A stretch of DNA of 64,000 bases from Candidatus Adlerbacteria bacterium (GCA_037135035.1 JBAXLB010000002.1:71680-135679), one strand, 5' to 3'; counted from the stretch's first letter, positions 13,850 through 55,418 are shown. Made by a program: numbers and translations. Notes: generated by a model from the sequence alone, not told the origin.

Positions 13850-14449
13850 TTACAGTGCTTTTGCAGAAGTCCCGAGATATTTAAGTGCTGCGGCAAGCCG
13901 CCCACTTGTGCCTGTGATGTCTTCGGGAATTTCTTTGAGTATCTTGCGGCTTTCGTCGGCGCGGTAGCCAAGTGCCATGAGCGCTTCAATGACCTCGCCG
14001 TCGCCACCGCCTGCATGCGCAGGTAGGCCGCGGAGTGTTGCTTCGGCGGTGAGTTTGTCGCGAAGTTCTACAACTAAACGCTCGGCACTTTTTTTGCCGA
14101 TACCAAATACTTTATGCAATTCACCTGCGTCGCCCGCGGCAATAGCGCGCTTCAAAGACGCAACGTCGGCGACATTTAAAATACCCAGTGCTGTTTTAGG
14201 TCCCACTCCCGATACGCTCATGAGTTGTTTAAAAAACCCGAGCTCTTCTTCGGTGGGGAAGCCGTAGAGGTCGAGTGCATCCTCGCGCACTGTTGTGTGT
14301 ATAAAAAGCGACACCACCGAGCCGCTATTTTTAAGGACGTCGAGCGACAAAAGAGGGGTGCGGACACAGTAACCAACGCCGCCAACTTCAACAAGTACCA
14401 TGCCGTCTGTGCCATTTCCGCTCAAGGTACCTGTCAGCTTGCCTATCAT
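13850..14449 (-). CDS. ruvA: Holliday junction DNA helicase subunit RuvA
   Basis: MIGKLTGTL N-terminus, HhH motifs GVGPKTALGIL, C-terminal domain III. Confidence 0.85.
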   Translation of the reverse strand: MIGKLTGTLSGNGTDGMVLVEVGGVGYCVRTPLLSLDVLKNSGSVVSLFIHTTVREDALDLYGFPTEEELGFFKQLMSVSGVGPKTALGILNVADVASLKRAIAAGDAGELHKVFGIGKKSAERLVVELRDKLTAEATLRGLPAHAGGGDGEVIEALMALGYRADESRKILKEIPEDITGTSGRLAAALKYLGTSAKAL

Positions 14450-14535
14450 CCTTCTATCATACTCTAGCGGACCGCTGCGAGCGAAATTGGGGTGGGGGCT
14501 TGTGTTTTTGGCAGTTATTGCGTACTGTAGTGTTC

Positions 14536-14784
14536 ATGGCAATCACCAAAGGAGCTAAAAAGGCACACCGCCAGTCGTTGCGTAAAAACGCAATGAACCA
14601 GACCCGCAAAACTGCTATGCGCACGGCTATGAAGAATGTCCGTGGGGCAGAAAAAGGCGATACTAAAACAATTGCTGCTGCCTACCAGGCAATAGACAAA
14701 GCCCTCAAGCGCGGCATCATCAAGAAAAATACTGCCGCCCGCCGCAAGGCCAAGGTCGCAAAGACTCTCTCCACAAAAAAGTAG
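14536..14784 (+). CDS. rpsT: 30S ribosomal protein S20
   Basis: MAITKGAKKAHRQSLRKN... basic helical S20 signature; ORF begins 14500 but Met at 14536 matches family. Confidence 0.8.
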   Translation: MAITKGAKKAHRQSLRKNAMNQTRKTAMRTAMKNVRGAEKGDTKTIAAAYQAIDKALKRGIIKKNTAARRKAKVAKTLSTKK

Positions 14785-14794
14785 TTTTTAAAAA

Positions 14795-14828
14795 AGAAAA
14801 GGCCGTCCCGAAAGGGGCGGCTTTTGAT
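14795..14828. terminator. Bidirectional intrinsic terminator
   Basis: aaaaggccgtcccgaaaggggcggcttttg; same 26-nt core recurs at 43233-43258. Confidence 0.65.
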
Positions 14829-14830
14829 TA

Positions 14831-15268
14831 TCAAACTCTCCATATTCTCCGCTCAAGGTCCAGGAAGAGGCGTGAGGTGGCAATTGCCGACGGAAGGGGA
14901 ATAATCTTTCCCCCAATAACATCTTCGGGGTACACGCCTGTCGCATCCTTGAACTTCTCGCGCAGGTAGTCGGGCAGGTGCGAAAAAAATTCGATGTTCA
15001 TGCCGACGATGTCTTCTTGTTTGTCCTCGCCGACCAAAATATCAAGATACAGATCTTTTGAAGGCATCACCTTTGCGCAACAATCACGCGTAAGGTATGT
15101 GAAGTGATCACTGGCCTCCCAATATATACAACAAGGCCGGAAGGGTTTGAGTTCTGCATCTTTCAAATCCTCTATGGTCATGCCCTGTGGCAAGAATGGT
15201 ACGATAGAAACTTTGCCGCTCATCAGATACTCCTTCGGTTGAACTTGAGGGGTGCTTCTAAAGTCCAA
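14831..15268 (-). CDS. Hypothetical protein with paired CC motifs (possible metal-binding)
   Basis: PCCIYWE...RDCCAKV; no family recognised; likely start at internal Met (15223). Confidence 0.35.
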   Translation of the reverse strand: MDFRSTPQVQPKEYLMSGKVSIVPFLPQGMTIEDLKDAELKPFRPCCIYWEASDHFTYLTRDCCAKVMPSKDLYLDILVGEDKQEDIVGMNIEFFSHLPDYLREKFKDATGVYPEDVIGGKIIPLPSAIATSRLFLDLERRIWRV

Positions 15269-18092
15269 CTATACCACGCTGTTTTCTTGCTATACTCTGT
15301 GCATGCAAACAGGACGGTCAATTGAGGTGGGAAAGGCGACTGATGCTGCACGTACAGAGCTGGAGAGTCTGCGCCAGCGTGCCAGCGAGCTTGAGGCAAA
15401 AATAAAAATTGAATCTGCCTCTCCGGCAGTTGAAATACAAAAACAGGCGGCTGTAGAAGCGGTTGGCGAGCAGTGGAAAAATACTGGGGCAACATCGCCA
15501 GCCGAAGCGCCGCGTGTGGCAGAACACCCGGAAGCTATTACGTTGCAACTTGAGCCCGAGCAGCACGACGAGCGCATGGGTGAGCTCATTCATATTTTGC
15601 AGGAACATGGCGTAACACGTGCTATTCAAGCAACAGAGAAAACGGGCAACCCACATTTGGTCGACGACTTTCACCGTATTTTGGTCGAATGGGTACGCGA
15701 AGGGCTGCCTGCCAAAGAAGTGTCGAGCAAAAAATATAAAGTCGCGCTTTCGATGGCGTTGTACGAAGTGACACTGCCGGGCCCGAATGCCGACAGTGAC
15801 AAACCAACTGACCCTGCAAAAACCATGCGCGACTTTATCTCCTTGATGGAGCAGTTTTACCGCGGCATGTTACAAATGGACACCAAACAGGGTGAATATT
15901 TTTCGTTCGAAATTGCAAACCCGGCAGGCGAGACGCATACCACCATGTATATTGCTGTGCCAAAAGCACGCAAAGCTATGTTTGAAAAACAGTTGCTGGG
16001 GCTGTACCCAACAGCCCGTCTTGTTGAACGGCATGACGACTACAACGCATTTGTCGACGGTGCAGAAACTGCAGCAGCAACAGCGCGCCTGCATGAGCGG
16101 GGCATATATTCGCTGCGGACGTCGGAGTCGTTTACCAACGACCCGCTCGACCTGTTGTTGAACGCGTTTTCGATGCTCGATAAAACAGGCGAAGGTGCTG
16201 CGGTGCAATTTGTCGTTTCCCCACGCGACCGGGGGTTAAACAAAGACTATCGCTGGGCACTCGAAAAAATACATCGGGGTGTGCCACTTGAACATGCAAC
16301 ACGGATATATAAAGGAGTGCCGAGGTTTTTCTACGATGTGTGGACCTTTTTTGTAGAACCAAAAAAATTGGACCAAGACGAGAGACTTAAACCCGACGAC
16401 GCGCGCCTAAAAAATATTGAACAAAAAATAGCAAGCCCAATTTTTTTGGCGGACATACGTCTTGTCGCGTCGGCCGCAACTAAAGAGCGTGCACAGGCAG
16501 TACTGCAAGACATTGAAGCACCGTTTCAGCAGTTTGCTGACACGGCAGGGAACAGTTTGGTATTTGATGCAGTGTCAGCGGGGAACATAAAAAACTTTGC
16601 GCGTGCATTTTCCTACCGCCTGCTCGACGAAGCAAAGGCATTGCCGCTTTCAGCTATGGAGTTGGCGACGCTTGCACACATGCCGGGGGCGTTGAGCAAA
16701 CTTGCAGCGCCCGACTTACGGCAAGAAAAAGCTGGCATTTCGGCCCCGCCAGCTAACTTGCCAAATGCGGGTGCAATGCTCGGTGTTAACAAATTCCGCG
16801 GGGCCACAAAAGAGGTGCGCATTGCGCCCGAAGACCGTTTGCGCCACCTGTACGTTATTGGCCAGACCGGTACAGGTAAGTCGGTATTGCTTAAAAATGT
16901 CATCATGCAAGACATAAAGTCGGGTGCTGGTGTCTGCATGATAGACCCGCACGGCTCCGACGTGTTGGATGTGCTTTCGGCTATACCACCTGAACGTATG
17001 GACGATGTTATTTATTTCGACCCAGGTTCTATGGAACGGCCAATAGGTCTGAATATGCTCGAGTTTGACCCCGCAAAGCCAGAACAAAAAACTCTTGTTG
17101 TGGACGAATTATTTGGCATATTTAAAAAACTCTTCGGCGCAGTGCCTGAAAGTATGGGGCCTGCATTCGAGCAATATTTTCGCAACTCTGCGTTGCTCGT
17201 GATGGAAGCACCAGAACTCGGCAGCACATTGCTCGACATTTCGCGTATTTTTGCCGACCCCGAGTTCCGTGCCCGCAAACTTGCTGCCTGCAAAAACCCT
17301 ATTGTGAAGCAGTTTTGGGAAGACATTGCTGCCAAGACAACCGGCGAGCAGGGCCTGGAAAACTACGGCCCCTATGTGACCAACAAGTTTGATATTTTTA
17401 CGACCAACGAGATTATGCGCCCTATCATTGCGCAGCAAAAGTCGGCGTTCAACTTTCGCGATATTATGGACAGCAAAAAGATTTTGCTGGTTAACCTTGC
17501 AAAAGGCCGCATTGGTGACATTAACGCAAACCTGCTCGGCTTGATAATCGTCGGTAAATTCTTAATAGCTGCACTTTCGCGTGCCGACTCTGTAGGTAAA
17601 GACTTGCCGCCCTACTATCTGCACATTGACGAGTTCCAAAACTTTACGACACCCTCAATTGCGACGATATTTTCGGAAGCGCGCAAATATAAACTCTCGC
17701 TCACAGTGGCGCACCAATTTATTGCCCAACTTTCGGAAGAAATTCGCGATGCGGTCTTTGGCAACGTTGGCTCTATATGCTCGTTCCGTGTAGGTGCTGC
17801 TGACGCAGAGTTTTTGGAAAAACAATTTGCCCCAACGTTTAAACAGAGCGACCTTATGAATGTCGACAACTGGAACGCATACGTGCGTTTGCTTGTTAAC
17901 GGCCGCCCCGCAACACCGTTTAACATCGAGACAGTACCTTTTGAAGGTAAGGGTATGGCTAACGCAGACAAAATGCGGGAACTTTCGGGCCTTAAATACG
18001 GCCGCCCACGTGCAGAAATTGAAGCCGAAATTGCCAAAAGTTTTAAAGGTTCCTCACAGGAGCCGGCAACGCTGGTAGGGAATGGACTCTAG
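15252..18092 (+). CDS. Large FtsK/HerA/VirB4-TraD-class P-loop ATPase with unassigned ~500-aa N-terminal region
   Basis: Walker A YVIGQTGTGKSVLLKN, Walker B/DExx YYLHIDEFQNF, C-terminal architecture like T4SS ATPases; no TM segments; alternative start ATG 15303. Confidence 0.6.
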   Translation: MLLKSNYTTLFSCYTLCMQTGRSIEVGKATDAARTELESLRQRASELEAKIKIESASPAVEIQKQAAVEAVGEQWKNTGATSPAEAPRVAEHPEAITLQLEPEQHDERMGELIHILQEHGVTRAIQATEKTGNPHLVDDFHRILVEWVREGLPAKEVSSKKYKVALSMALYEVTLPGPNADSDKPTDPAKTMRDFISLMEQFYRGMLQMDTKQGEYFSFEIANPAGETHTTMYIAVPKARKAMFEKQLLGLYPTARLVERHDDYNAFVDGAETAAATARLHERGIYSLRTSESFTNDPLDLLLNAFSMLDKTGEGAAVQFVVSPRDRGLNKDYRWALEKIHRGVPLEHATRIYKGVPRFFYDVWTFFVEPKKLDQDERLKPDDARLKNIEQKIASPIFLADIRLVASAATKERAQAVLQDIEAPFQQFADTAGNSLVFDAVSAGNIKNFARAFSYRLLDEAKALPLSAMELATLAHMPGALSKLAAPDLRQEKAGISAPPANLPNAGAMLGVNKFRGATKEVRIAPEDRLRHLYVIGQTGTGKSVLLKNVIMQDIKSGAGVCMIDPHGSDVLDVLSAIPPERMDDVIYFDPGSMERPIGLNMLEFDPAKPEQKTLVVDELFGIFKKLFGAVPESMGPAFEQYFRNSALLVMEAPELGSTLLDISRIFADPEFRARKLAACKNPIVKQFWEDIAAKTTGEQGLENYGPYVTNKFDIFTTNEIMRPIIAQQKSAFNFRDIMDSKKILLVNLAKGRIGDINANLLGLIIVGKFLIAALSRADSVGKDLPPYYLHIDEFQNFTTPSIATIFSEARKYKLSLTVAHQFIAQLSEEIRDAVFGNVGSICSFRVGAADAEFLEKQFAPTFKQSDLMNVDNWNAYVRLLVNGRPATPFNIETVPFEGKGMANADKMRELSGLKYGRPRAEIEAEIAKSFKGSSQEPATLVGNGL

Positions 18093-18124
18093 GAAATTCC
18101 TCGGAATTTTAGTACTCTGTAGAT

Positions 18125-18238
18125 ATGGAAGGACTTAATAAACACATAGAAACACCAGAGCAGCAAGAAAAGCGCAAACATATGGAAGCGATTGCTAAAG
18201 TTGGTGGTGCCATTCGTCTGTTAGAAACGCAAGACTAA
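18125..18238 (+). CDS. Hypothetical micro-protein (37 aa)
   Basis: Intact ORF immediately downstream of the large ATPase; no SD. Confidence 0.2.
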   Translation: MEGLNKHIETPEQQEKRKHMEAIAKVGGAIRLLETQD

Positions 18239-18242
18239 TTAT

Positions 18243-18422
18243 ATGACTGTTGAAACTGTAGCCAACATTTTGAGCGAGAGCGCTTTTTCGCCGGATATTT
18301 ATGCGCGTATGGAAACTATTTTGAAGGCCGCAAAAGAGCGGGGGAGCATTACTGCTGAAGAAAAAGCACGACTTCTTGAGTTAGTTGATGAGGAGGAAAA
18401 AAAGACACGTGCACAGATCTAG
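18243..18422 (+). CDS. Hypothetical small helical protein (59 aa)
   Basis: Intact ORF MTVETVANILSES...; 4 nt after preceding micro-ORF. Confidence 0.25.
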   Translation: MTVETVANILSESAFSPDIYARMETILKAAKERGSITAEEKARLLELVDEEEKKTRAQI

Positions 18423-18429
18423 TTATTTC

Positions 18430-18735
18430 TTACTTCGACTTGCGTTGATAGTCTTTAAACGCTTCTTCAATTATCTTGTCCATCTTTGTACCGTGCTGAA
18501 GATGTTTTACTACGGTCTGTCCGTAGACTTCTGCAAATAAAGAATCTTGTTGTGCCAGTACCCGCGCAGCTTCTACGAGGTCAGCAAACAATGGGCCGCG
18601 CACTTTTTCTTCGGTAATTTCTTGCGCGTCTTTGTCTCGTATTGCTCCAAGTGCTTTTTGTAATGTTACTATCTCGGTCGGAGTTTCTGGTGAGGTAGGT
18701 GCGGTTGGCAGGGGTTCTTTTTCTTGTGAGGGCAT
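18430..18735 (-). CDS. Hypothetical protein (101 aa)
   Basis: Clean ORF, Pro/Thr-rich N-terminus then helical region. Confidence 0.4.
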   Translation of the reverse strand: MPSQEKEPLPTAPTSPETPTEIVTLQKALGAIRDKDAQEITEEKVRGPLFADLVEAARVLAQQDSLFAEVYGQTVVKHLQHGTKMDKIIEEAFKDYQRKSK

Positions 18736-18811: not shown

Positions 18812-18884
18812 GCTCCCGTCGTTCAATGGATAGGACGTATCCTTGCGGAGGATATGATGTAGGTTCGATTCCTACCGGGAGCAC
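18812..18884 (+). tRNA. tRNA-Arg with apparent anticodon GCG
   Basis: Acceptor GCTCCCG/CGGGAGC, D-loop AATGGATAG, anticodon stem TATCC/GGATA with loop TTGCGGA, T-arm GGTTCGATTCC; paralog of tRNA-Arg(CCG) at 21602. Confidence 0.7.
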
Positions 18885-19153
18885 CTGGTAGAAAGGGCGT
18901 CAGAAAACCCTTTCGTGTTAAGGCAATTTCGTTCGAGGTTTTTTGTCACCTTTGAGAGTGCAGATTTTAGCTTGAAAAATAAGGATTGAAAGTTCGAATG
19001 TTCTGGCTGCTTGCTGTGGACAACGTGTTGATACCAAGCCTTGCTGCGGTTCATTGCGCGTTTAGTTTCCTATGATAGAGTCAACGTGTGCCTGTGGGCG
19101 CAAGCCCCGTTCAGCTAAGGATTTCCTAAGCTGAAGGCAGGCACGACAAAGGT

Positions 19154-36628: not shown

Positions 36629-37288
36629 ATGGGGAAGCGGGGCCCAAAACCAAAAAAAATAGTTTCTGAAGTCTGGACTCCAGAGTTAGCCTACGCCGTT
36701 GGTCTGTTAGCTACAGATGGAGGCCTCTCTCCGCCGGGCCATCTGATCGACCTCACTTCAAAGGATGTGCAGCAGCTCGAAAATTATCGTAATTGTTTAA
36801 ATATTTCTACCCCGATAACTAAAAAACTTTCGGGAATAGGAAAGGAATTTCTTCGAGTTCAGTTCAAAAATGTCTATTTTTATAACTTTCTTCTTTCTGT
36901 TGGTCTTACGCCAGCAAAGTCAAAGACTCTTGGTCCACTGAAAATTCCAAACAAATTCTTTTTTGATTTTTTGAGAGGGGTCTTTGACGGTGATGGTTGT
37001 ACATATTCTTATTTTGACCCACGTTGGCATTCGAGTTTTATGATCTATTCCTGTGTTGCGTCTTCAAGTTCTGCTTTTGTTGCATGGTTGCAGGAAACTC
37101 TTGCAAAGAAACTTGCCATCAAAGGTCATATTACGGTTACACAAAAGAAACATTACCAACTTCGGTATGCAAAGACAGAGTCAATAAAGTTACTAAAGAA
37201 AATGTATAGTCAGCCTGGATGTATTTGTCTTAGACGTAAACGGTTGAAAATAGAGAAGATGCTTAGTATAGTGGGCGAACACCTGTAA
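36629..37288 (+). CDS. Free-standing LAGLIDADG-family homing endonuclease
   Basis: Two LAGLIDADG motifs (LAYAVGLLATDGGL; LRGVFDGDGC); markedly lower GC than flanks; stop 1 nt before tRNA-Leu. Confidence 0.8.
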   Translation: MGKRGPKPKKIVSEVWTPELAYAVGLLATDGGLSPPGHLIDLTSKDVQQLENYRNCLNISTPITKKLSGIGKEFLRVQFKNVYFYNFLLSVGLTPAKSKTLGPLKIPNKFFFDFLRGVFDGDGCTYSYFDPRWHSSFMIYSCVASSSSAFVAWLQETLAKKLAIKGHITVTQKKHYQLRYAKTESIKLLKKMYSQPGCICLRRKRLKIEKMLSIVGEHL

Positions 37289-37289
37289 T

Positions 37290-37371
37290 GCCCAGGTGGC
37301 GTAATTGGTAAACGCGCTACCTTGAGGTGGTAGTGCCGCAAGGCGTGGAGGTTCAAGTCCTCTCCTGGGCA
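37290..37371 (+). tRNA. tRNA-Leu (anticodon GAG)
   Basis: Acceptor GCCCAGG/CCTGGGC, anticodon stem CTACC/GGTAG loop TTGAGGT, long variable arm, T-arm GGTTCAAGTCC. Confidence 0.85.
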
Positions 37372-43911: not shown

Positions 43912-44017
43912 TTTTTACACATACTGCACAATAGGAACATGATCTAAGTTTGCTCCACCACAAAACGCCGCTCCATATAGGGGTGGCGTTTTGTATTTAC
44001 CGGGTAACTAAAAAAAT

Positions 44018-44371
44018 ATGGATTATATTCATCTCAATAATTTAAAAATTCGCGGCAAGCACGGAGTATATGAAGAGGAACGCAAAGTAGAACAGGAGTT
44101 CGAATTACATTTAAAGCTCGGTGTGGGGGATACCTCTGCTGCTGCACAAAGTTGTGAGCTTACGGATGCCGTCGACTACGTTCCAATAAAAGCAGAAATA
44201 GAAAAGATAGTTAAAGAAAAAAGCTTCTATCTCATCGAAACACTCGCAGACACTATCTCCAAAAAAGTTATGGAAGACCCGCGCATTCAAACCCTCGAAC
44301 TTACCATAAACAAGCCAGAGGTTTGGAGTAATGTCGTACCAGGGCTGACGATTTTTAGGAGCAGAAATTAA
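44018..44371 (+). CDS. folB: Dihydroneopterin aldolase
   Basis: MDYIHLNNLKIRGKHGVYEEER... Confidence 0.8.
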   Translation: MDYIHLNNLKIRGKHGVYEEERKVEQEFELHLKLGVGDTSAAAQSCELTDAVDYVPIKAEIEKIVKEKSFYLIETLADTISKKVMEDPRIQTLELTINKPEVWSNVVPGLTIFRSRN

Positions 44372-44871
44372 TTTCTCTCAAGCGTTACCCAGGAGTACTT
44401 CAACCCTTCGTGTTCGTGAGCTTCTTCTGAAACTTTTTTTGTGAATTCTGTCTCGTATTCAGGGAAAAAAGTATCTGCATCTTGTGCGTCGTCGATGAGT
44501 GTTAAGTAGAGCCGGTCGACATGGGGGAGCGCTTGTTTGTACAAGTCCGAGCCGCCACCGATATGAATTTCTTCTCCATCAAGCTCGCGGGCTTTTGCGA
44601 GTGCATCTTCAAGAGAGTGAAATACAAGAACGCCTTCATGCTGCCAGTCCGGGTCGCGTGTCACAACAATATTTGTCCGGCCAGGCAAGGGCTTACCCCG
44701 TATCTGCAGAATAGAGTCAAATGTTTTGCGCCCCATGATAACAGGGTGGCCTAAGGTAAGGGCTTTAAAACGTTTCAAGTCTTCTGGGATATACCAGAGT
44801 AGCTTGCCGTTTTTCCCAATCTCTCGGTTTTTACCAATAGCGACAACGATAGAAACGTGGGGTTTTTGCAT
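44368..44871 (-). CDS. folA: Dihydrofolate reductase
   Basis: VSIVVAIGKNREIGKNGKLLWYIPEDLKRFKALTLGHPVIMGRKTF. Confidence 0.85.
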   Translation of the reverse strand: MQKPHVSIVVAIGKNREIGKNGKLLWYIPEDLKRFKALTLGHPVIMGRKTFDSILQIRGKPLPGRTNIVVTRDPDWQHEGVLVFHSLEDALAKARELDGEEIHIGGGSDLYKQALPHVDRLYLTLIDDAQDADTFFPEYETEFTKKVSEEAHEHEGLKYSWVTLERN

Positions 44872-44882
44872 AGTCCGCTTTA

Positions 44883-45434
44883 GTGTACACTAGTCGCATC
44901 ATGCAAGCCCCAAACAAAAAAGTTGTAAAGAATGTTAAAGATTTAAAGGAAAAAATTACAGCCCATAAGACACTTGGGCATAAAATTGTCTGCACTATTG
45001 GTTCATGGGATATGTTACATATTGGCCACCTTCGGTATCTCAATGCAGCAAAGGCAAAGGGGGACATTCTTGTGGTGGGGGTAGACAGCGACCGCGGTAT
45101 AAAGTCATACAAAGGTCCATTGCGCCCGATAATTCCTGAAGATGAACGTATGGAAATGTTGTCGTATCAAGACTGTGTTGACTATGTAACTCTTACCGAC
45201 GACATAGATAGCAAGGGCAGATGGCAGTATGAAATTTTAAAGACTCTTCCGATCGATGTTTTTATTGCAGTTGATGGAAATAGTTACACTGCAGAACAAA
45301 AAAGAACAATAAAGAAATATACAAAACTCGAAGTCTTGCCCCGCCAAGCTCTTAAGACCTCTTCGACAGATATTATCCAAAATGTACTCAAAAATCATTT
45401 GATAGATAAAGTTGGAAGTTTTAAGAAACGCTAA
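44883..45434 (+). CDS. Cytidylyltransferase-fold nucleotidyltransferase (RfaE/HldE domain II-like)
   Basis: IGSWDMLHIGHLRYLNAAKAKGDILVVGVDSD closely matches HxGH...YL...VNSD of heptose-1-P adenylyltransferase domain. Confidence 0.55.
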   Translation: MYTSRIMQAPNKKVVKNVKDLKEKITAHKTLGHKIVCTIGSWDMLHIGHLRYLNAAKAKGDILVVGVDSDRGIKSYKGPLRPIIPEDERMEMLSYQDCVDYVTLTDDIDSKGRWQYEILKTLPIDVFIAVDGNSYTAEQKRTIKKYTKLEVLPRQALKTSSTDIIQNVLKNHLIDKVGSFKKR

Positions 45435-46255
45435 TGGTACGGAATTTAATTTTATATGTTCCGGTCATACATCGGGGGTATATAGATCTTTTTGCTACTC
45501 ATAAAGATGAGATTGGTAGTATCTATCTACTTCCTGACTCATTTACCGAACTTGTTGCTTTAAAACCTGACATTGCGTCTCTCCCAGCAGAGTCAGTTGC
45601 AGCTCTTCTTAATTCCTTTGGATTTAAAACTGTATCAGTCTTTAAAGAATCGGATATTTCTAAATTAGCTGGAGAACCACTAATGCTTATTAATGACCAA
45701 CTTTCGCGTGCTTTAGCTGCTAAATTTTTCCTGCATAGTGACTTGAAATGGGCAGATGTTTTTTTGCGCTGGGACCGCGATTCTGTATTTACCGAGGAAG
45801 ATATCAATATTTCAGTTTCTAAAGATAGTTTTGATGTGCAAACGATCCAACAAGCTCAAATAGAAGCAAAAAAAAGTTCTGACTGGTGGCGGCAAGTAGG
45901 AGCCGTATTAGTAAAAAATTCTGAAATTGTAGATAGGGCATTTAATGAAGCGATGTTTTCTGACCATTCTCCATATCAGCGGGGGGCCGTTAGAGACTCG
46001 CTCCAGCCAGGCGAGCGTCCGGAACTCTCAGATACAATCCACGCCGAACAAAAAATTATTGCAAATGCAGCTAAAAATGGGGTTTCTTTGGAGGGGGCAT
46101 CTCTGTATGTAACACATTTCCCATGCCCTGTATGTGCAAAGCTTATAGTGCATTCAGGTATCAAGAACTGTTATTTTTTACAGGGTTCTTCCTCACTGAA
46201 AGGTAGGGAATTATTAGAAAACGCCGGTGTTAATTTGGCTAGAATAGGACTCTAA
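45434..46255 (+). CDS. dCMP deaminase (ComEB-type) with ~130-aa N-terminal extension
   Basis: HAEQKII...PCPVCAKLIVHSGIKN zinc-binding deaminase motifs in C-terminal half; start overlaps upstream stop. Confidence 0.75.
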   Translation: MVRNLILYVPVIHRGYIDLFATHKDEIGSIYLLPDSFTELVALKPDIASLPAESVAALLNSFGFKTVSVFKESDISKLAGEPLMLINDQLSRALAAKFFLHSDLKWADVFLRWDRDSVFTEEDINISVSKDSFDVQTIQQAQIEAKKSSDWWRQVGAVLVKNSEIVDRAFNEAMFSDHSPYQRGAVRDSLQPGERPELSDTIHAEQKIIANAAKNGVSLEGASLYVTHFPCPVCAKLIVHSGIKNCYFLQGSSSLKGRELLENAGVNLARIGL

Positions 46256-46264
46256 GAGTAAAAT

Positions 46265-47101
46265 ATGTTTATGCACCCCGAACAACAATATCTCGATCTA
46301 TTGAAAAACGTGCTTGATAACGGCCAGGGTAAGAGTGATCCGCACGGGGTAGGGAGTATCGCTGTGCTAGGGAGCATGTCACGCTATAACTTAGATGATG
46401 GATTTCCACTTCTCACAACAAAAAAACTTTCCTTTAAGTTTATTGTTCATGAATTGTTGTGGTTCTTGAGCGGCGAAAGCAGAACTGATTATTTGAGGGC
46501 AAATGGCGTTACTATTTGGGATGAATGGGCAACAAAAGAAAATGCTGCTAAGTATGGTTTAGAAGAAGGTGATCTCGGGCCAATCTATGGTCCCCAATGG
46601 CGTCATTGGAAAACCACGACTGGCGGTGAGATAGACCAAATTCAAAGATTAGTTGACGGACTTAAAGAGCACCCAGACTGGCGTCGCCATATGGTTACAG
46701 CGTGGAACCCAGAGTTTGTGGACAGCGTGTTTGTTGCACCGTGTCACGGTATTTTTAAGTGTTTCGCTGTGAATGGAGAACTCTCACTCCATATGTTTCA
46801 GCGTAGCGCAGATGTATTTTTGGGAGTCCCATACAATATTGCGTCGTATTCGCTTTTGCTTATGATGATTGCTCAAGTGACTGGCATGAAAGCAAAAGAG
46901 TTTGTGCACACAACTTCCGATACTCATATCTACAACAACCACTTTGAACAAGCTCGAGAGCAATTAACTCGCCAACCTCTTCCGTTTCCGCGGGTTACTC
47001 TTAACCCTGATATAAAAAATATCTTCGACTTTAAATTCGAAGATTTTACGTTGCACGACTATCAAGCCCATGGAAGCATCAAAGCTCCTATTGCAGTTTA
47101 G
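46265..47101 (+). CDS. thyA: Thymidylate synthase
   Basis: LTTKKLSFKFIVHELLWFLSGESRTDYL; catalytic Cys region (VAPCHGIF). Confidence 0.9.
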   Translation: MFMHPEQQYLDLLKNVLDNGQGKSDPHGVGSIAVLGSMSRYNLDDGFPLLTTKKLSFKFIVHELLWFLSGESRTDYLRANGVTIWDEWATKENAAKYGLEEGDLGPIYGPQWRHWKTTTGGEIDQIQRLVDGLKEHPDWRRHMVTAWNPEFVDSVFVAPCHGIFKCFAVNGELSLHMFQRSADVFLGVPYNIASYSLLLMMIAQVTGMKAKEFVHTTSDTHIYNNHFEQAREQLTRQPLPFPRVTLNPDIKNIFDFKFEDFTLHDYQAHGSIKAPIAV

Positions 47102-47598
47102 CCAATAGGGAAGTTTACAGTTTCAGCTATTCCTTTTTTGTTTAGTTGAGGGGAAATCAAATGAGCGTGTAGATGTGCAACTGTTGCGCCTGTGTAGTCA
47201 GTATCGCCAAAGCGCATATTGAGGGCTCCTCCTTTGAGATCGAATTTTTTAACCGCCCATTTACTTAACTCTAATATCTCCTTGATATCGCTCGTGGAAA
47301 GTTGGACAAGTTTCTCCTTATGTTTTAGAGAAATAATAATAAAGTGTTTCTGGGTATTTTTATACGGCCAACTATTTTCGGTAAGAATCCATCCACGACC
47401 CTTCTTCAATATTGGATGTTTATGATAACGAAAATTTTCTGGGCAGAAAGGACAAAGTTTTGTATCAGCTATTGCGCCAATAACAGCCTTATATTCTGGA
47501 CTTTTTGCAAAGCGCGGATTTACTACGCGAGTGCCTTTTTTAACCGTCATAGAGGGTATAATAGCGTAAAACAACTCTAATGCTACAATCTGGGACAT
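47098..47598 (-). CDS. HIT-superfamily protein (GalT/Ap4A-phosphorylase-like branch)
   Basis: CPFCPEN zinc motif and HLHAHLI histidine triad. Confidence 0.5.
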   Translation of the reverse strand: MSQIVALELFYAIIPSMTVKKGTRVVNPRFAKSPEYKAVIGAIADTKLCPFCPENFRYHKHPILKKGRGWILTENSWPYKNTQKHFIIISLKHKEKLVQLSTSDIKEILELSKWAVKKFDLKGGALNMRFGDTDYTGATVAHLHAHLISPQLNKKGIAETVNFPIG

Positions 47599-47932
47599 GG
47601 AATTCGACGAATACCAAAAGCTTGCTGCCCGGACGGCTGTGTTTAATAAGCAAGACAGCGACTATATCCTGATGTATCTCTCCATGGGCATAGCGGGCGA
47701 AAGTGGTGAAGTGGTAGAAAAGGTAAAACATATTATCCGCGACGCGGGCGGGGTCGTAAGTGAAGAAAAACGAGAAGGGATAAAGAAAGAAATTGGGGAT
47801 GTACTGTGGTACCTCTCACAATTAGCAAAAGAATTAAATCTTTCGTTCGGCGATATTGCAGATGCTAATATTAAGAAGCTTGCGAGCCGACAGGAGCGCA
47901 ATGTACTCAAGAGCGAAGGCGACAATCGATAA
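47597..47932 (+). CDS. MazG-like nucleoside triphosphate pyrophosphohydrolase
   Basis: EFDEYQKLAARTA...GESGEVVEKVKH...EIGDVLWYLSQLA. Confidence 0.75.
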   Translation: MEFDEYQKLAARTAVFNKQDSDYILMYLSMGIAGESGEVVEKVKHIIRDAGGVVSEEKREGIKKEIGDVLWYLSQLAKELNLSFGDIADANIKKLASRQERNVLKSEGDNR

Positions 47933-47988
47933 ATTTCTATGATCTAAGTTTCTGACAATTCTTTTTTACTGATTAACTAGTCATCACT

Positions 47989-49293
47989 ATGGATTCTTAC
48001 GACTTTATAAAAAAACAAGACAGCGAAGTATTTGCAACATTGGAGGGAGAAGAGACACGTGAGAGGGAAGGGCTCGAACTTATCCCTTCGGAAAACTACG
48101 TTTCAAAAGCAGTGCGTGAAGCAAACGGTTCGGTATTCACTAACAAATATTCGGAAGGGTATCCGGGCAAGCGCTACTACGGCGGGCAGACATACACCGA
48201 CCACGTTGAACTTATTGCTATTGACCGCGCTAAAAAACTCTTTGGCTGCGACCATGCAAACGTGCAGCCTTTAGGTGGTGCAAACGCAAACATTGGTGCA
48301 TATTTTGCATGGCTTGAACCGGGCGACACAGTACTTGGTATGGACCTGTCGCATGGGGGGCATTTGACCCACGGCCACCCGGTTACCTACATGTCGAAGT
48401 TGTTTAACTTTGTTCGCTACAAAATGAAAGACCCCGAGACCGGCGAAATTGACTACGACGAAATGCGCGAAGTCGCAAAGCGTGAAAAACCAAAATTAAT
48501 TCTTGCTGGCTACTCGGGCTATTCGCGCGAGCTCGACTACAAAATAATAGGTGAAATAGCAAAAGAAGTGGGCGCCGTTGCTATGGCTGACATGGCGCAT
48601 GTGGCGGGGCTTATTGCTGGCGGGGTACACAAAAACCCGTTTGACTACGGCTTCCAGATTGTGACGACAACCACACACAAAACACTACGTGGGCCGCGTG
48701 GCGGGATGATTATGTCAAAAGGCATTGTGTCTAACCCGATGAAGGCGCCGGAAAAAACGATAGAAAATTTGCCAACACTTATTGACCGCGCTGTGTTCCC
48801 GGGTTTGCAGGGTGGCCCACACATGAACACGACAGCAGCAAAAGCAATTGCGTTTGGCGAAGCGTTGCATCCGTCGTTTAAAACATATGCGGCGCAGATC
48901 CTTAAAAATGCAAAAGCAATGGAGGAAGTCTTCCGGAACAGGGGGGTCCGTATGCTCGGCGGCGGCACTAGTAACCACCTCATACTCGCCGATGTGTTTG
49001 GAAGTTTGGGTGTGCCAGGTAAAGAAGCTGAAGAGGTGTTAGACCGGGTTGGTATTACGCTAAACAAAAACAGCATTGCCGATGACACACGACCGCCGTT
49101 TAACCCGTCGGGCATCCGCTTGGGTACACCGGCCATTACAACGCGCAAGTTGATGGAGGCAGAAAGTGCTCGTGTTGCAGAGCTGATGCTCGACGCACTG
49201 CGTGACCGGGCCGACCAAAGCAAGCTCGACAGCATACATGCAGAGATAAAAGAGCTGTGCGGCAAATTCCCTATACCGGACTCCTTCGTGTAA
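47989..49293 (+). CDS. glyA: Serine hydroxymethyltransferase
   Basis: LIPSENYVS..., PLP-lysine region TTTTHKTLRGPRGG. Confidence 0.9.
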   Translation: MDSYDFIKKQDSEVFATLEGEETREREGLELIPSENYVSKAVREANGSVFTNKYSEGYPGKRYYGGQTYTDHVELIAIDRAKKLFGCDHANVQPLGGANANIGAYFAWLEPGDTVLGMDLSHGGHLTHGHPVTYMSKLFNFVRYKMKDPETGEIDYDEMREVAKREKPKLILAGYSGYSRELDYKIIGEIAKEVGAVAMADMAHVAGLIAGGVHKNPFDYGFQIVTTTTHKTLRGPRGGMIMSKGIVSNPMKAPEKTIENLPTLIDRAVFPGLQGGPHMNTTAAKAIAFGEALHPSFKTYAAQILKNAKAMEEVFRNRGVRMLGGGTSNHLILADVFGSLGVPGKEAEEVLDRVGITLNKNSIADDTRPPFNPSGIRLGTPAITTRKLMEAESARVAELMLDALRDRADQSKLDSIHAEIKELCGKFPIPDSFV

Positions 49294-52067: not shown

Positions 52068-55000
52068 ATGGATGATTTGAAGCAGGGCGGGGAAGAGCTG
52101 CACCCAGAAGCGGTGCATAAACCAAAAAGTACTTTTGCCGTACGGGAGGAAAAGACTCTCGCGTTTTGGGAAGCACAGGACATATTTAAAAAATCGCTCG
52201 AGAAGCATGCGCCTAAGGGCGAGTTTGTTTTCTACGATGGTCCGCCGTTTGCAAACGGCTTACCTCACTATGGGCACTTGCTCCAAAGCACAATAAAAGA
52301 CGCCATACCTCGCTACCGCACGATGCGGGGGTACCGTGTGCCGCGCCGCTGGGGATGGGACTGCCACGGTCTACCGGTTGAAAACTTGGTAGAAAAAGAA
52401 TTGGGGTTTAAGTCTAAGCGCGACATTGAAGAGTTTGGCATTGCAAATTTCAACAAAGCTGCTCGAACAAGCATCATGAAAGATGTTGCGGACTGGAAAC
52501 GAATTATCCCACGCATCGGACGCTGGGCTGACATGGAGAACGACTACAAGACGATGGACTCGACCTATACCGAGTCTGTCTGGTGGGCGTTTAAAAATTT
52601 GCACAGTCGCGGACTTATTTACGAGGGCTTCAAGGGCATGCATTTTTGTCCTCGTTGTGGAACGACGCTTTCCAACAACGAAGTGGCCCAAGGCTACATG
52701 GACATTGAAGACATTGCGGTCACAGTAAAATTTCCACTTGTAGACGAACCGGAAACATCCATACTTATTTGGACCACCACTCCCTGGACCTTGCCGGGCA
52801 ACACTGCAGCTGCAGTAAACGCCGACGCTGTATATGTAAAAGTCCGCACAGACGAAGGCTTTGTTGTTGTTGCGAAAGAGCTTATGACAAAAGTGCTTGG
52901 CGAAGATGCAAAAATATTTGCCGAGATACTTGGAAAAGACCTGGTAGGTAAACGATACAAACCGCCATTTAGTTATTTCGAACATACGCTCCATAAACAT
53001 AAAAGCCACGCGTATAAAATATACGCCGCACCGTATGTGACGCTTGAAGACGGCACGGGCATTGTCCACCTTGCACCTGCCTACGGCGCAGAAGACTTGA
53101 TCTTTGCCCAGAAAGAAAAAATTCCGCTTATCCAACACGTCACTGACGAAGGTAAATTTATCGCAACGGTCACCGACTTTGTAGGGCTCTCGGTCAAACC
53201 AAAAGGTCGCCATATGGAAACGGATGCAAAGATTGTAGAGAACCTGCACGCCCGTGGGTTGCTTTTCCATCAGGAAAAAATAACTCACTCATACCCGCAC
53301 TGCTGGCGCTGCGACACACCGCTCCTCAACTGGGCTGCAAATTCCTGGTTTGTAAGTGTTTCAAAAATAAAACCAAAATTGTTGGCACAAAATAAAAAAG
53401 TTTCTTGGGTGCCGAAAAGCACGGGAGAAGGGCGTTTCCAAAAAGGTCTTGAAAGTGCGCCTGACTGGGCAATTTCCCGCAGCCGTTACTGGGGCGCACC
53501 GCTACCAGTTTGGCGCCACAGCAAAACCAAAGAATTGAAAGTGATGGGCTCTGTTGAAGAGCTGTTACAGGTTGTGCGCCGCTCAGGTAACAAATATTTT
53601 GTAATGCGCCACGGCGAAGCACAGTCAAACGTCGACAATGTGGAAGATATCGAAGGTGACCCAAATAACCACCTCACCAAGAAAGGTAAGGCACAGGTGT
53701 TGTCTGCTGCACGAGCACTTGCTTCAAAAAAAATAGACATGATAGTTACGTCGCCTTTTGTGCGGACTAAAGAAACAGCGCACCTCTTGGCGAACGAGTT
53801 TGGCCTGCCTGAGTCTGCAGTTATGGTGGACACTCGTTTGGGAGAAGTAGCCCATGTAACACCTGAACTTTGTCGCAATGTAGGCGAATTTATTTTTGAA
53901 ATTGAGAGGCGTTACAGCGGCAAAAACATACTTGTAGTTTCGCACGGCGGCGCTATTTGGGCATTGCAGCAAGTAGTTGGGCGCCAACCGACGACAGGTT
54001 TTTACCGCACAGCTATGCTCGGTAATGCAGAGTGCGCAGAACTACCGTTTGTGCCGTTCCCACATAACGAACAGTACGAACTTGACCTGCACCGGCCGTT
54101 TATTGACGACATCCTGCTTGGGGACTCTTTGGCGGGGGAGTGGAAGCGTGCCCCCGATGTGTTTGATTGTTGGTTTGAGTCGGGTTCGATGCCGTACGGG
54201 TCTAACCACTATCCGTTTCAAAAAAACAATTTCAATCCGAAAAAAATGTTTGGATTGATGCCAAAGGGATACCCAGCCGACTTTATTGCAGAAGCTGTTG
54301 ACCAGACACGTGGCTGGTTCTACTCGCTTATTGTGCTCGGGACGGCGCTCTTTGGGAGGTCGCCATACAAAAATGTTATTACGACAGGGCTCATTAATGC
54401 GAGCGACGGTAAGAAGATGAGTAAACGATTGAAAAATTATCCTGACCCGCTTGATCTTATCGACAAATACGGAGTTGACTCGCTCCGCTATTACATACTG
54501 TCGTCACAACTTGTCCGCGGTGAAGACCTGAGTTTTAAAGAACAAGGGGTTGAAGAAGTTTCAAAAAAACTCCTGATGCGTTTGGACAACGTCGTGTCGT
54601 TCTATGAACTGTATGCAAACAGCACGACCCGCTCGAATGAAAGTACACACGCACTCGACCGGTGGATTTTGTCGCGGTTTGGGGAGTTGACCACACAAAC
54701 CACTGCAGGGTTTGAAAGTTATGAGCTTGATGCGGCGACACGCCCGCTCGCATTGTTTATCGACGACCTCTCTACGTGGTACCTGCGCCGTTCTCGTGAC
54801 CGTTTTAAAACAGATGGGGAAGGGAAGGTGCAGGCGCTCGCTACATTGCGCTTTGTGTTACACACGCTTGCACACACTATGGCGCCCGTGATGCCGTTTT
54901 TTGCCGACGAGTTGTTTGGCCGTATGAAGGAAGAAGGTGACCCAGAGAGTGTCCATTTGTCGGGTTGGCCTGCCGCAGAAAAAGTAGATACAGCGCTGCT

Positions 55001-55418
55001 TGCCGACATGGTCCGCGTGCGCGAGGTGGCGTCGAAGGGGTTGGAGTTGCGCGAGTCTGCGGGTATAAAAATTCGCCAGCCTCTTGCTGCGCTTGTGGCA
55101 AAACAACTTCCCAACGACGACGGCCTACGCGCACTTATTAAAGACGAATTAAATGTAAAAAAAGTAGTAGAAGATGTCGCACAAGTAAACGATGTTTCGC
55201 TCGACACAGAACTGACTCCAGAATTAAAGGAGGAGGGTGTCGTACGCGACTTGGCGCGCCGCATACAAGAATGGCGCAAAGAGCAAAAACTAACTATTGC
55301 CGACAGGCCCGTCTGCACACTTCTAGTCTCTGCGGAAGAAAAAATAGTTGCTGAAAAAAATAAAACAGCTCTTATGGCCCAGACTGGCCTAGAGGACCTG
55401 CAGTTGGTGGTGAAGTAA
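52068..55418 (+). CDS. ileS: Isoleucyl-tRNA synthetase (type 2) carrying an inserted histidine-phosphatase domain
   Basis: HYGH, WDCHGLPVE, editing domain, RSRYWGAPLPVW, DVFDCWFESGS, KMSKR; ~170-aa RHG/SHGG phosphatase-fold insertion at 53571..54078. Confidence 0.9.
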   Translation: MDDLKQGGEELHPEAVHKPKSTFAVREEKTLAFWEAQDIFKKSLEKHAPKGEFVFYDGPPFANGLPHYGHLLQSTIKDAIPRYRTMRGYRVPRRWGWDCHGLPVENLVEKELGFKSKRDIEEFGIANFNKAARTSIMKDVADWKRIIPRIGRWADMENDYKTMDSTYTESVWWAFKNLHSRGLIYEGFKGMHFCPRCGTTLSNNEVAQGYMDIEDIAVTVKFPLVDEPETSILIWTTTPWTLPGNTAAAVNADAVYVKVRTDEGFVVVAKELMTKVLGEDAKIFAEILGKDLVGKRYKPPFSYFEHTLHKHKSHAYKIYAAPYVTLEDGTGIVHLAPAYGAEDLIFAQKEKIPLIQHVTDEGKFIATVTDFVGLSVKPKGRHMETDAKIVENLHARGLLFHQEKITHSYPHCWRCDTPLLNWAANSWFVSVSKIKPKLLAQNKKVSWVPKSTGEGRFQKGLESAPDWAISRSRYWGAPLPVWRHSKTKELKVMGSVEELLQVVRRSGNKYFVMRHGEAQSNVDNVEDIEGDPNNHLTKKGKAQVLSAARALASKKIDMIVTSPFVRTKETAHLLANEFGLPESAVMVDTRLGEVAHVTPELCRNVGEFIFEIERRYSGKNILVVSHGGAIWALQQVVGRQPTTGFYRTAMLGNAECAELPFVPFPHNEQYELDLHRPFIDDILLGDSLAGEWKRAPDVFDCWFESGSMPYGSNHYPFQKNNFNPKKMFGLMPKGYPADFIAEAVDQTRGWFYSLIVLGTALFGRSPYKNVITTGLINASDGKKMSKRLKNYPDPLDLIDKYGVDSLRYYILSSQLVRGEDLSFKEQGVEEVSKKLLMRLDNVVSFYELYANSTTRSNESTHALDRWILSRFGELTTQTTAGFESYELDAATRPLALFIDDLSTWYLRRSRDRFKTDGEGKVQALATLRFVLHTLAHTMAPVMPFFADELFGRMKEEGDPESVHLSGWPAAEKVDTALLADMVRVREVASKGLELRESAGIKIRQPLAALVAKQLPNDDGLRALIKDELNVKKVVEDVAQVNDVSLDTELTPELKEEGVVRDLARRIQEWRKEQKLTIADRPVCTLLVSAEEKIVAEKNKTALMAQTGLEDLQLVVK

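Follow-up and report, generated by a model that had tools for sequence, protein, structure and literature searches.

Patescibacteria account for a large share of bacterial diversity. Nearly every genome of this group encodes orphan homologues of type IV coupling proteins (T4CPs), the role of which is an acknowledged open point (PMC12102498). The same question is raised by a gene for a large ATPase in a stretch of 64,000 nucleotides (nt) from Candidatus Adlerbacteria bacterium (GCA_037135035.1, JBAXLB010000002.1:71680-135679), the whole of which is referred to below as the window: which machinery does a secretion-type motor serve when it has neither a membrane anchor nor a type IV secretion system (T4SS) beside it? 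An original prediction, made from the sequence of the window, described an FtsK/HerA/VirB4-class ATPase with an unassigned N-terminal half, pointed to the recurrence of such proteins in anti-phage systems, and proposed two micro open reading frames (micro-ORFs) downstream as possible partner subunits. Here we examine the protein, its relatives and its genomic setting. We favour, with moderate confidence, the view that the ATPase is an anchorless variant of the coupling proteins, which either works in trans for a chromosomal T4SS or has undergone exaptation.

An ATPase without a membrane anchor

The uninterrupted reading frame of 946 amino acids (aa), its Walker A and HIDEFQNF motifs, and the two small ORFs behind it are all present as originally described (Table 1). 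The true product is most likely the 929-aa protein initiated at the ATG at position 15303, because alignments with homologues begin there and because the genes called independently on an identical contig from a metagenome (L101) include a 929-aa product carrying PF26449 (DUF8128). Residue numbers given here follow this shorter form. Walker A reads VIGQTGTGKSVLLKN (GQTGTGKS, nt 16860-16883) and Walker B reads HIDEFQNF (nt 17622-17645), and the core residues of the two motifs (GQTGTGKS and hhhhDE) are invariant across 58 homologues.

The sole hydrophobic 19-mer of the protein (aa 740-758, Kyte-Doolittle 1.98) is, according to the structural model, a helix buried within the core of the ATPase domain, and the ATPase therefore has no membrane anchor. 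No N-terminal hydrophobic segment was found in it by the same scan, which returned two transmembrane peaks each in TrwB and PcfC. The absence of transmembrane segments, which the original prediction had noted, was thus borne out by both the hydrophobicity scan and the model.

A motor of the coupling-protein type

The superfamily first named for this ATPase was confirmed, and within it the motor can be assigned more narrowly to the T4CP (TrwB/VirD4) type, being a member of neither the HerA nor the VirB4 family. We make this assignment because TrwB is the best match both in profile comparisons and among PDB sequences, because the fold superposes on that of TrwB, and because the characteristic all-alpha insertion is present. 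In hhalign comparisons a profile of the C-terminal half scored 94.7% with TrwB (E 6e-8, 350 columns), as against 31.7% with PcfC and 10.7% with the TrwK C-domain, and TrwB was the only match when the family profile was searched against PDB sequences. Foldseek aligned the AlphaFold model (predicted local distance difference test, pLDDT, 83) with TrwB at a target-normalised TM-score (TMt) of 0.60-0.65 and a root-mean-square deviation of 5-7 Å over ~430 columns. TrwB is accordingly the best match of the C-terminal half by structure (TMt 0.65) as well as by sequence profile. An all-helical insertion (aa 595-710) lies between Walker A and Walker B in the model, as it does in coupling proteins.

The ATPase shares with the TrwB/VirD4/TraG coupling proteins (TrwB of R388, 1e9r/1gl6) the RecA-like nucleotide-binding domain, both Walker motifs and the inserted all-alpha domain. 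It differs from them in lacking N-terminal transmembrane helices, which are replaced by a soluble N-terminal region of ~480 aa, and in the lack of accompanying relaxase or T4SS genes, none being seen within the window or at the 85 Patescibacteria loci. Scores against curated family models were low throughout. Pfam DUF87 reached 26.6 bits over 39 residues, PF02534 (T4SS-DNA_transf) 22.1 bits (cut-off 20.1) with no single stretch passing, and TraG-D_C 21.6 bits (cut-off 22). NCBIfam SXT_TraD reached 42 bits (cut-off 366), and the NCBIfam TraD models all fell far under their cut-offs. The FtsK/SpoIIIE model PF01580 reached 16 bits (cut-off 24) on a match of just 22 residues, which does not place the protein in that family.

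The N-terminal half and its probable VirB4-like fold

The N-terminal half is, as the original prediction stated, unrecognisable by sequence, but it is not unassigned: it corresponds to Pfam PF26449 (DUF8128), for which a precomputed match is recorded with the identical 929-aa product as well as with almost every homologue, and UniRef lists one orthologue as a 'DUF8128 domain-containing protein'. DUF8128 went unmentioned in the literature searched. Neither hmmsearch against PDB sequences nor Pfam (E<=10, 61 members) gave a match to this half, and no sequence relatives were found outside the DUF8128 family. Sequence likeness to VirB4 was likewise absent when hhalign was run against single sequences of TrwK and PrgJ and against a 60-sequence VirB4 profile. 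Sequence-level homology with VirB4 was rejected on the strength of these hhalign, hmmsearch and Pfam results.

An AlphaFold model of the N-terminal half, built from 58 sequences (pLDDT 86.8, predicted TM-score 0.79), has three parts: a hairpin (aa 14-60), a helical bundle (aa 89-132) and an alpha/beta domain (aa ~150-470). The hairpin and the bundle, the latter predicted to consist of three helices, are joined by a disordered linker (aa 62-75). Two near-invariant motifs, PExHD and NPHxxDDFHR, fall within the bundle, with DDFHR at nt 15663-15677. When this model was searched against the PDB with Foldseek, the only significant matches were TrwK/VirB4 chains (E 5.7e-6 to 3.9e-4, prob 1.00; ~410 columns, TM-score 0.32-0.35), and the next PDB matches had E>=0.01. 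The query left out the P-loop domain, so what it matches is the N-terminal portion of VirB4. For the full-length model, too, VirB4 (TrwK) was the top PDB match (~900 columns, E 4e-15). Among viral structures in BFVD, the N-terminal half matched phage G gp156 (E 5.6e-16) as well as one protein that bears the annotation 'Component of type IV transporter system' (E 1.1e-4). As far as predicted structures can tell, the DUF8128 half probably folds like the VirB4 N-terminal domain, and the protein as a whole probably combines a VirB4-like two-domain layout with a T4CP-like motor.

Compared with TrwK/VirB4 of the R388 T4SS (7o42, 7o43, 8rtd), the two-domain layout is alike, the predicted fold of the N-domain has VirB4 as its only significant PDB match, and VirB4 too is soluble or peripheral, without classical transmembrane helices. 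The differences are that the N-terminal half has no detectable sequence homology with VirB4, that the motor is nearer to T4CPs by sequence, and that the VirB4 family models failed (TIGR00929 VirB4_CagE 14.5 bits against a cut-off of 643; no match to PF03135, CagE_TrbE_VirB, or to AAA_10/PF19044). These comparisons bear on whether the protein could be a divergent but true VirB4, acting as an assembly or energising ATPase of a T4SS and not as a coupling protein. The VirB4 chains heading the matches of the full-length model, the restriction of the N-terminal matches to VirB4, and the VirB4-like length and domain layout would all suit such an identity. It is contradicted by the failure of the VirB4 models, by a C-terminal half that is closer in sequence to TrwB than to TrwK, by the presence of a separate, genuine VirB4 in the same genomes and on the Bacillus plasmids described below, and by the lack of an adjacent VirB3. 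We consider it very unlikely.

Plasmid and phage relatives in Bacillus

Outside Patescibacteria, tblastn located the two-domain architecture (query aa ~175-875) in large Bacillus phages and on Bacillus plasmids. The plasmid proteins, annotated 'DUF87 domain-containing proteins', share 23-25% identity with the ATPase over aa 174/198-873 and include WP_121549396.1 on the B. subtilis MH-1 plasmid NZ_CP032854.1 and WP_003349917.1 on B. methanolicus pBM69. Hidden Markov models (HMMs) built from Patescibacteria alone matched them collinearly in the N-domain (E 1e-7 and 1e-5) and in the motor (E 1e-40). The plasmid homologues have no transmembrane helices and align from hmm position 194. They thus resemble the Adlerbacteria protein in having the DUF8128 core and the motor, but lack its first ~145 aa, the helical module.

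On both the MH-1 plasmid and pBM69, the homologue is the first gene of an operon and stands directly upstream of a Replic_Relax relaxase. TcpC (VirB8-like), TcpE (VirB3-like), an AAA_10 VirB4-type ATPase and further conjugal transfer proteins are encoded in the same operon. Because these homologues match both HMMs, lack transmembrane helices and lie beside a relaxase in a T4SS operon, the anchorless architecture fills the coupling-protein slot in conjugative plasmids of monoderm bacteria. No experimental characterisation of the plasmid homologues was found in the literature. The coupling protein of pLS20 (gene 48) was considered as a further anchorless variant and rejected, since it has two transmembrane helices and is a classical T4CP.

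Bacillus phage G gp156 and its relatives in large Bacillus phages (PHROG 5156) have a similar two-domain architecture (tblastn, aa 180-873), and phrog_5156 matches the ATPase with E 1.7e-76. They differ from it in being phage-borne and in lacking the N-terminal module specific to the Candidate Phyla Radiation (CPR). The adjacent proteins gp155 and gp156 of phage G (BFVD G3MBM1, G3MBM2) both match the fold of the DUF8128 N-domain.

Contigs in IMG/VR encode motors that stand alone, lacking DUF8128, and these motors exceed the Pfam cut-offs for TrwB_AAD_bind and TraG-D_C. These viral contigs were discarded as homologues of the full architecture, since they carry stand-alone motors only and several of them look cellular, with tRNA synthetase and Na/Pi transporter genes as neighbours in some cases. 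One 34-kb 'viral' contig (IMGVR_UViG_2898945296_000003; L093/L094) has three copies of a stand-alone T4CP-type motor.

A core family of orphan coupling-protein homologues

At least 566 homologues of the ATPase were recovered, with 48-81% identity and nearly all of 900-940 aa, and relatives are present in at least 423 species (one genome per species scanned). The best 80 of these at least 423 species all belong to Patescibacteria, in Paceibacteria/Parcubacteria lineages. Among the matches listed, the closest species representative is an Adlerbacteria metagenome-assembled genome with 72% identity. A phmmer search with the N-terminal 480 aa alone returned 698 clusters, and in complete proteins the domain was always N-terminal, in products of 800-1000 aa; judged by these searches, the N-terminal half and the motor form a fixed architecture. 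A shorter class of ~800 aa lacks the first ~145 aa and begins at about query aa 145.

The gene is embedded in housekeeping neighbourhoods that differ between clades. In the clade of the window it follows MurE-RuvA (reverse strand) and S20 (forward strand), and the order ruvA-rpsT-ATPase is kept in three related loci (L001, L002 and L096). In 34 of the 85 loci it follows S5-L15-SecY-Adk-(UMP-kinase-like)-Map, and downstream come Ndk (32 loci, median gap 85 bp), a small membrane protein, a beta-CASP RNase and then L20-L35-IF3. In another clade it is found among MurG, GltX, FtsW and MraY. Such synteny marks a core gene transmitted vertically, not a mobile or defence island. Within Ca. Adlerbacteria the ATPase is the orthologue that represents a core Patescibacteria family, inherited vertically, which is catalogued but uncharacterised. 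A tandem paralogue that seemed to lie upstream in 32-34 loci was dismissed as an artefact of single-linkage clustering through a fused ORF (L063); the genes concerned encode methionine aminopeptidase.

The family can be connected to a recent survey by Quiñonero-Coronel et al. (2025; PMC12102498), in which 5,713 VirD4-type T4CP homologues were counted in 2,918 of 3,035 Patescibacteria genomes, whereas VirB4 was present in 2,417. Only 148 of the 5,713 T4CP homologues were near virB4 (PMC12102498). An exact-sequence look-up identified one of the orthologues in our set (L040) as KKR00358.1, which Table S3 of that survey lists as a T4CP (t4cp1, 88.18% coverage) without VirB4 proximity (PMC12102498), and which qualifies as t4cp1 under the CONJScan criteria used there. 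The genome encoding KKR00358.1 has a VirB3/VirB4 cluster at a separate site as well as FtsK-like t4cp2 matches (PMC12102498). Because this orthologue is listed as a t4cp1 protein not near VirB4, the ATPase belongs to the known class of orphan T4CPs (t4cp1) of Patescibacteria, far from the chromosomal virB4 cluster.

Possible docking or exaptation

By analogy with T4CP, VirB4 and FtsK-HerA ATPases, the protein would form a ring and spend ATP on passing along or translocating a DNA or protein substrate. In VirB4 the N-domain pairs protomers and contacts VirB3 and VirB8 (PMC12857230). We propose that a VirB4-like N-domain may take over from the membrane anchor and let the motor dock at the membrane core of a T4SS of the monoderm type, because the anchorless two-domain homologues on Bacillus plasmids fill the coupling-protein slot. 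Once docked, the ATPase might act as a substrate receptor or as an energiser of the T4SS. In Paceibacteria the gene would have become uncoupled from transfer operons and fixed in housekeeping neighbourhoods, where its product could either serve a relaxase-less chromosomal T4SS in trans or have been exapted to a T4SS-independent core role. The Patescibacteria T4SS was essential for epibiotic growth in the one species tested (PMC12102498).

Several observations weigh against an anchorless coupling protein at work in a T4SS. Scores of the ATPase with curated T4CP models lie at the cut-offs or under them. Clustering of neighbouring genes across the 85 Patescibacteria loci revealed no T4SS, relaxase, nuclease or defence genes near it, and its position behind secY-adk-map is suggestive of a housekeeping role. 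High-coverage t4cp1 matches, putatively to DUF8128 proteins, persist in each of the five VirB4-negative Paceibacteria drafts checked, although these drafts are incomplete. Moreover, the T4CP homologue of S. epibionticum, which may be an orthologue of the DUF8128 family, was reported to be non-essential while other T4SS genes were essential (PMC12102498).

Some of this evidence points to a housekeeping translocase that descends from coupling proteins and now acts in a T4SS-independent core process, for which incoming DNA or nucleotide handling, chromosome or nucleoid processing, and protein delivery to the membrane are candidates. It would be in keeping with the position of the gene, which lies in the S5-L15-SecY-Adk-Map/Ndk/L20-L35-IF3 block in 34 of the 85 loci and elsewhere beside RuvA, MurE, MurG or FtsW, and with a degree of conservation that is very high for a CPR protein. 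The excess of genomes with T4CPs over those with VirB4 in the survey, and persistence in the VirB4-negative drafts checked, point the same way, as does a CPR-specific N-terminal module, with its invariant DDFHR, that plasmid and phage homologues lack. The survey authors themselves raise the idea, writing of orphan T4CPs that exaptation 'cannot be ruled out' (PMC12102498). However, no conserved functional partner directs attention to a particular process, the neighbours being generic housekeeping genes. Three of the five incomplete drafts lacking VirB4 retain other T4SS parts, and the survey counts of T4CPs mix t4cp1 with FtsK-like t4cp2. We regard a fully exapted translocase as possible but somewhat doubtful.

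A bolder proposal, which we put forward only tentatively and think rather improbable, is that the DUF8128 ATPases constitute a third, hitherto unrecognised lineage of T4SS-type ATPases with a VirB4-like N-domain and a T4CP-like motor, either intermediate between VirB4 and T4CPs or a chimera of the two, and that this lineage was domesticated in Paceibacteria as an essential, T4SS-independent translocase co-expressed with the ribosomal/SecY block. If this were true, the domesticated translocase could, for example, drive the import or processing of DNA or proteins that epibionts need from their hosts.

Defence and the downstream micro-ORFs

The anti-phage role first suggested for the ATPase did not survive comparison with its relatives; in that role it would be a HerA-like protein partnered by the micro-ORFs or by some effector that escaped notice. 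A PADLOC match to mad8 (E 3.7e-13), weak HerA matches, the DUF87 score of 26.6 bits and the occurrence of homologues on phages and plasmids could be read in its favour. The HerA and DUF87 matches, though, span ~40 residues around the P-loop (aa ~520-570), so that PADLOC registers a P-loop-level resemblance to HerA and a lone mad8. No nuclease, Sir2, methylase, other Mad gene or effector lies nearby, and a vertically inherited core gene in housekeeping synteny across at least 423 species is not part of a variable island. HerA itself (Sulfolobus 4d2i) is of the same superfamily (Foldseek E ~1e-10), with sequence likeness confined to the P-loop. The ATPase differs from it in lacking both a HAS-barrel N-domain and a partner such as NurA or an effector, and in the fold of its N-terminal half. 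A defence function is in our judgement extremely improbable.

The two micro-ORFs do not behave as partner subunits either. The 37-aa ORF has no family matches and no tblastn match in 84 related loci, and its DNA cannot be aligned in a related locus (L100) that has only a positional 28-aa ORF. That the 37-aa ORF might be a remnant or relative of neighbouring genes in relatives was rejected, as the resemblances were sub-significant only. For the 59-aa ORF, NCBI has an identical protein ('hypothetical protein WCK46_01505 [Candidatus Adlerbacteria bacterium]'), and its family comprises four clusters only among 5.8 billion proteins. In L001 and L002 its place is taken by a 108-aa gene, whose first 49 residues are 55% identical to it. 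Comparison with its 58-aa homologue in L100 gave 18 synonymous and 13 non-synonymous codon changes, the differences by codon position numbering 7/6/27. On these counts the 59-aa ORF is a genuine gene subject to purifying selection; its distribution is limited to a single narrow lineage. The 103-aa DUF5663-like proteins that neighbour the ATPase in some relatives were considered as kin of the 59-aa ORF and dropped, the relation not being significant (hhalign 0.24%). Neither micro-ORF occurs beside the ATPase in 80 other loci, and closer Adlerbacteria relatives have different genes downstream of it. As neither tracks the ATPase, the micro-ORFs are not its partners.

Much of what the original prediction had named as evidence against itself was therefore found: the predicted fold of the N-terminal half resembles that of the VirB4 N-domain; the Bacillus homologues stand in canonical Gram-positive T4SS operons; and the micro-ORFs are not conserved. 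Its statement that no T4SS components lie nearby held: Pfam scans of ~50 ORFs of the window detected none, and tblastn searches in which TrwK and PrgJ served as queries were likewise negative.

An A/T-rich hairpin (GAAATTCC-TC-GGAATTTT; 18093..18110) directly follows the stop codon of the ATPase gene; it was read by eye and was uncalled by the terminator scan. A clean terminator hairpin, rich in GC, stands ahead of the pair of small ORFs in L100. A convergent 101-aa ORF (18430..18735, reverse strand) ends 8 nt past the 59-aa ORF, with tRNA-Arg(GCG) beyond it (18812..18885, forward strand).

Further features of the window

The window is an ordinary segment of a Patescibacteria chromosome, in which the ~50 ORFs scanned with Pfam are all housekeeping genes. 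They include TyrRS, RuvC, RuvB, a PilB-type ATPase, PolA, SpoU, MurE, RuvA, S20 and proteases, together with redox proteins, NusG, ThyA, SHMT and several tRNA synthetases, and the window also holds eight tRNAs. Coordinates of the ATPase gene, its domains and its immediate neighbours are collected in Table 1.

Table 1 Features of the ATPase locus, in positions of the window
Feature	Coordinates	Strand	Length or basis
ruvA	13850..14449	-	Pfam/NCBIfam
rpsT (S20)	14500..14784	+	Pfam/NCBIfam
ATPase ORF	15252..18092	+	946 aa from GTG, no interruption
Coding sequence, DUF8128 and T4CP-type ATPase	15303..18092	+	929 aa from ATG 15303 (most likely product); homologues cover 100% of query
N-terminal helical module (predicted), aa 1-145	15303..15737	+	AlphaFold (AF2) model; conservation
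DUF8128 core, predicted alpha/beta domain, aa ~146-475	15738..16727	+	pLDDT mostly >90
T4CP-type motor domain, aa ~485-915	16755..18047	+	hhalign, Foldseek, weak Pfam/NCBIfam matches, invariant motifs
All-alpha insertion in motor, aa 595-710	17085..17432	+	Model; between Walker A and Walker B
37-aa ORF	18125..18238	+	Unsupported as a gene
59-aa ORF	18243..18422	+	Genuine small gene, one lineage

The 518-bp gap between rpsT and the ATPase gene (14785..15302) has no conserved ORF; L096, an 81% identical relative, has a 119-aa gene there that is unmatched in the window. In a set of Adlerbacteria-like loci (L005, L097-L099 and L003), the ATPase is flanked by a protein of 640-850 aa without a Pfam match (8854..11124 in L097; 12765..15170 in L003) and by a DUF5663-like protein of ~103 aa, in either orientation, where the window has the micro-ORFs in their place.

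Elsewhere in the window, a 1116-aa class-I tRNA synthetase (52068..55418, forward strand; tRNA-synt_1 and Anticodon_1, IleRS-like) contains an inserted histidine-phosphatase domain (His_Phos_1, aa ~511-595, E 5.5e-22), an unusual fusion. GC content falls from ~0.49 to 0.41 at 44000..48000, a dCMP-deaminase/thymidylate-synthase region. A 219-aa ORF with a weak LAGLIDADG_3 match (36629..37288, forward strand) lies directly upstream of tRNA-Leu at 37290.

Implications

The DUF8128 family had already been catalogued, and orphan T4CPs had been counted in the 2025 survey. What is new here is an anchorless architecture for one of these orphan T4CPs, in which the N-terminal half, as modelled, probably mimics the VirB4 docking domain. 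New, too, are the fixation of an orphan T4CP in core housekeeping synteny and the existence of plasmid relatives in Bacillus conjugation operons. For an orphan class found in nearly all Patescibacteria genomes, this offers a concrete hypothesis, namely that docking through a VirB4-like domain may take the place of a membrane anchor, and the Bacillus plasmid relatives provide a genetically tractable model for the function of the family.

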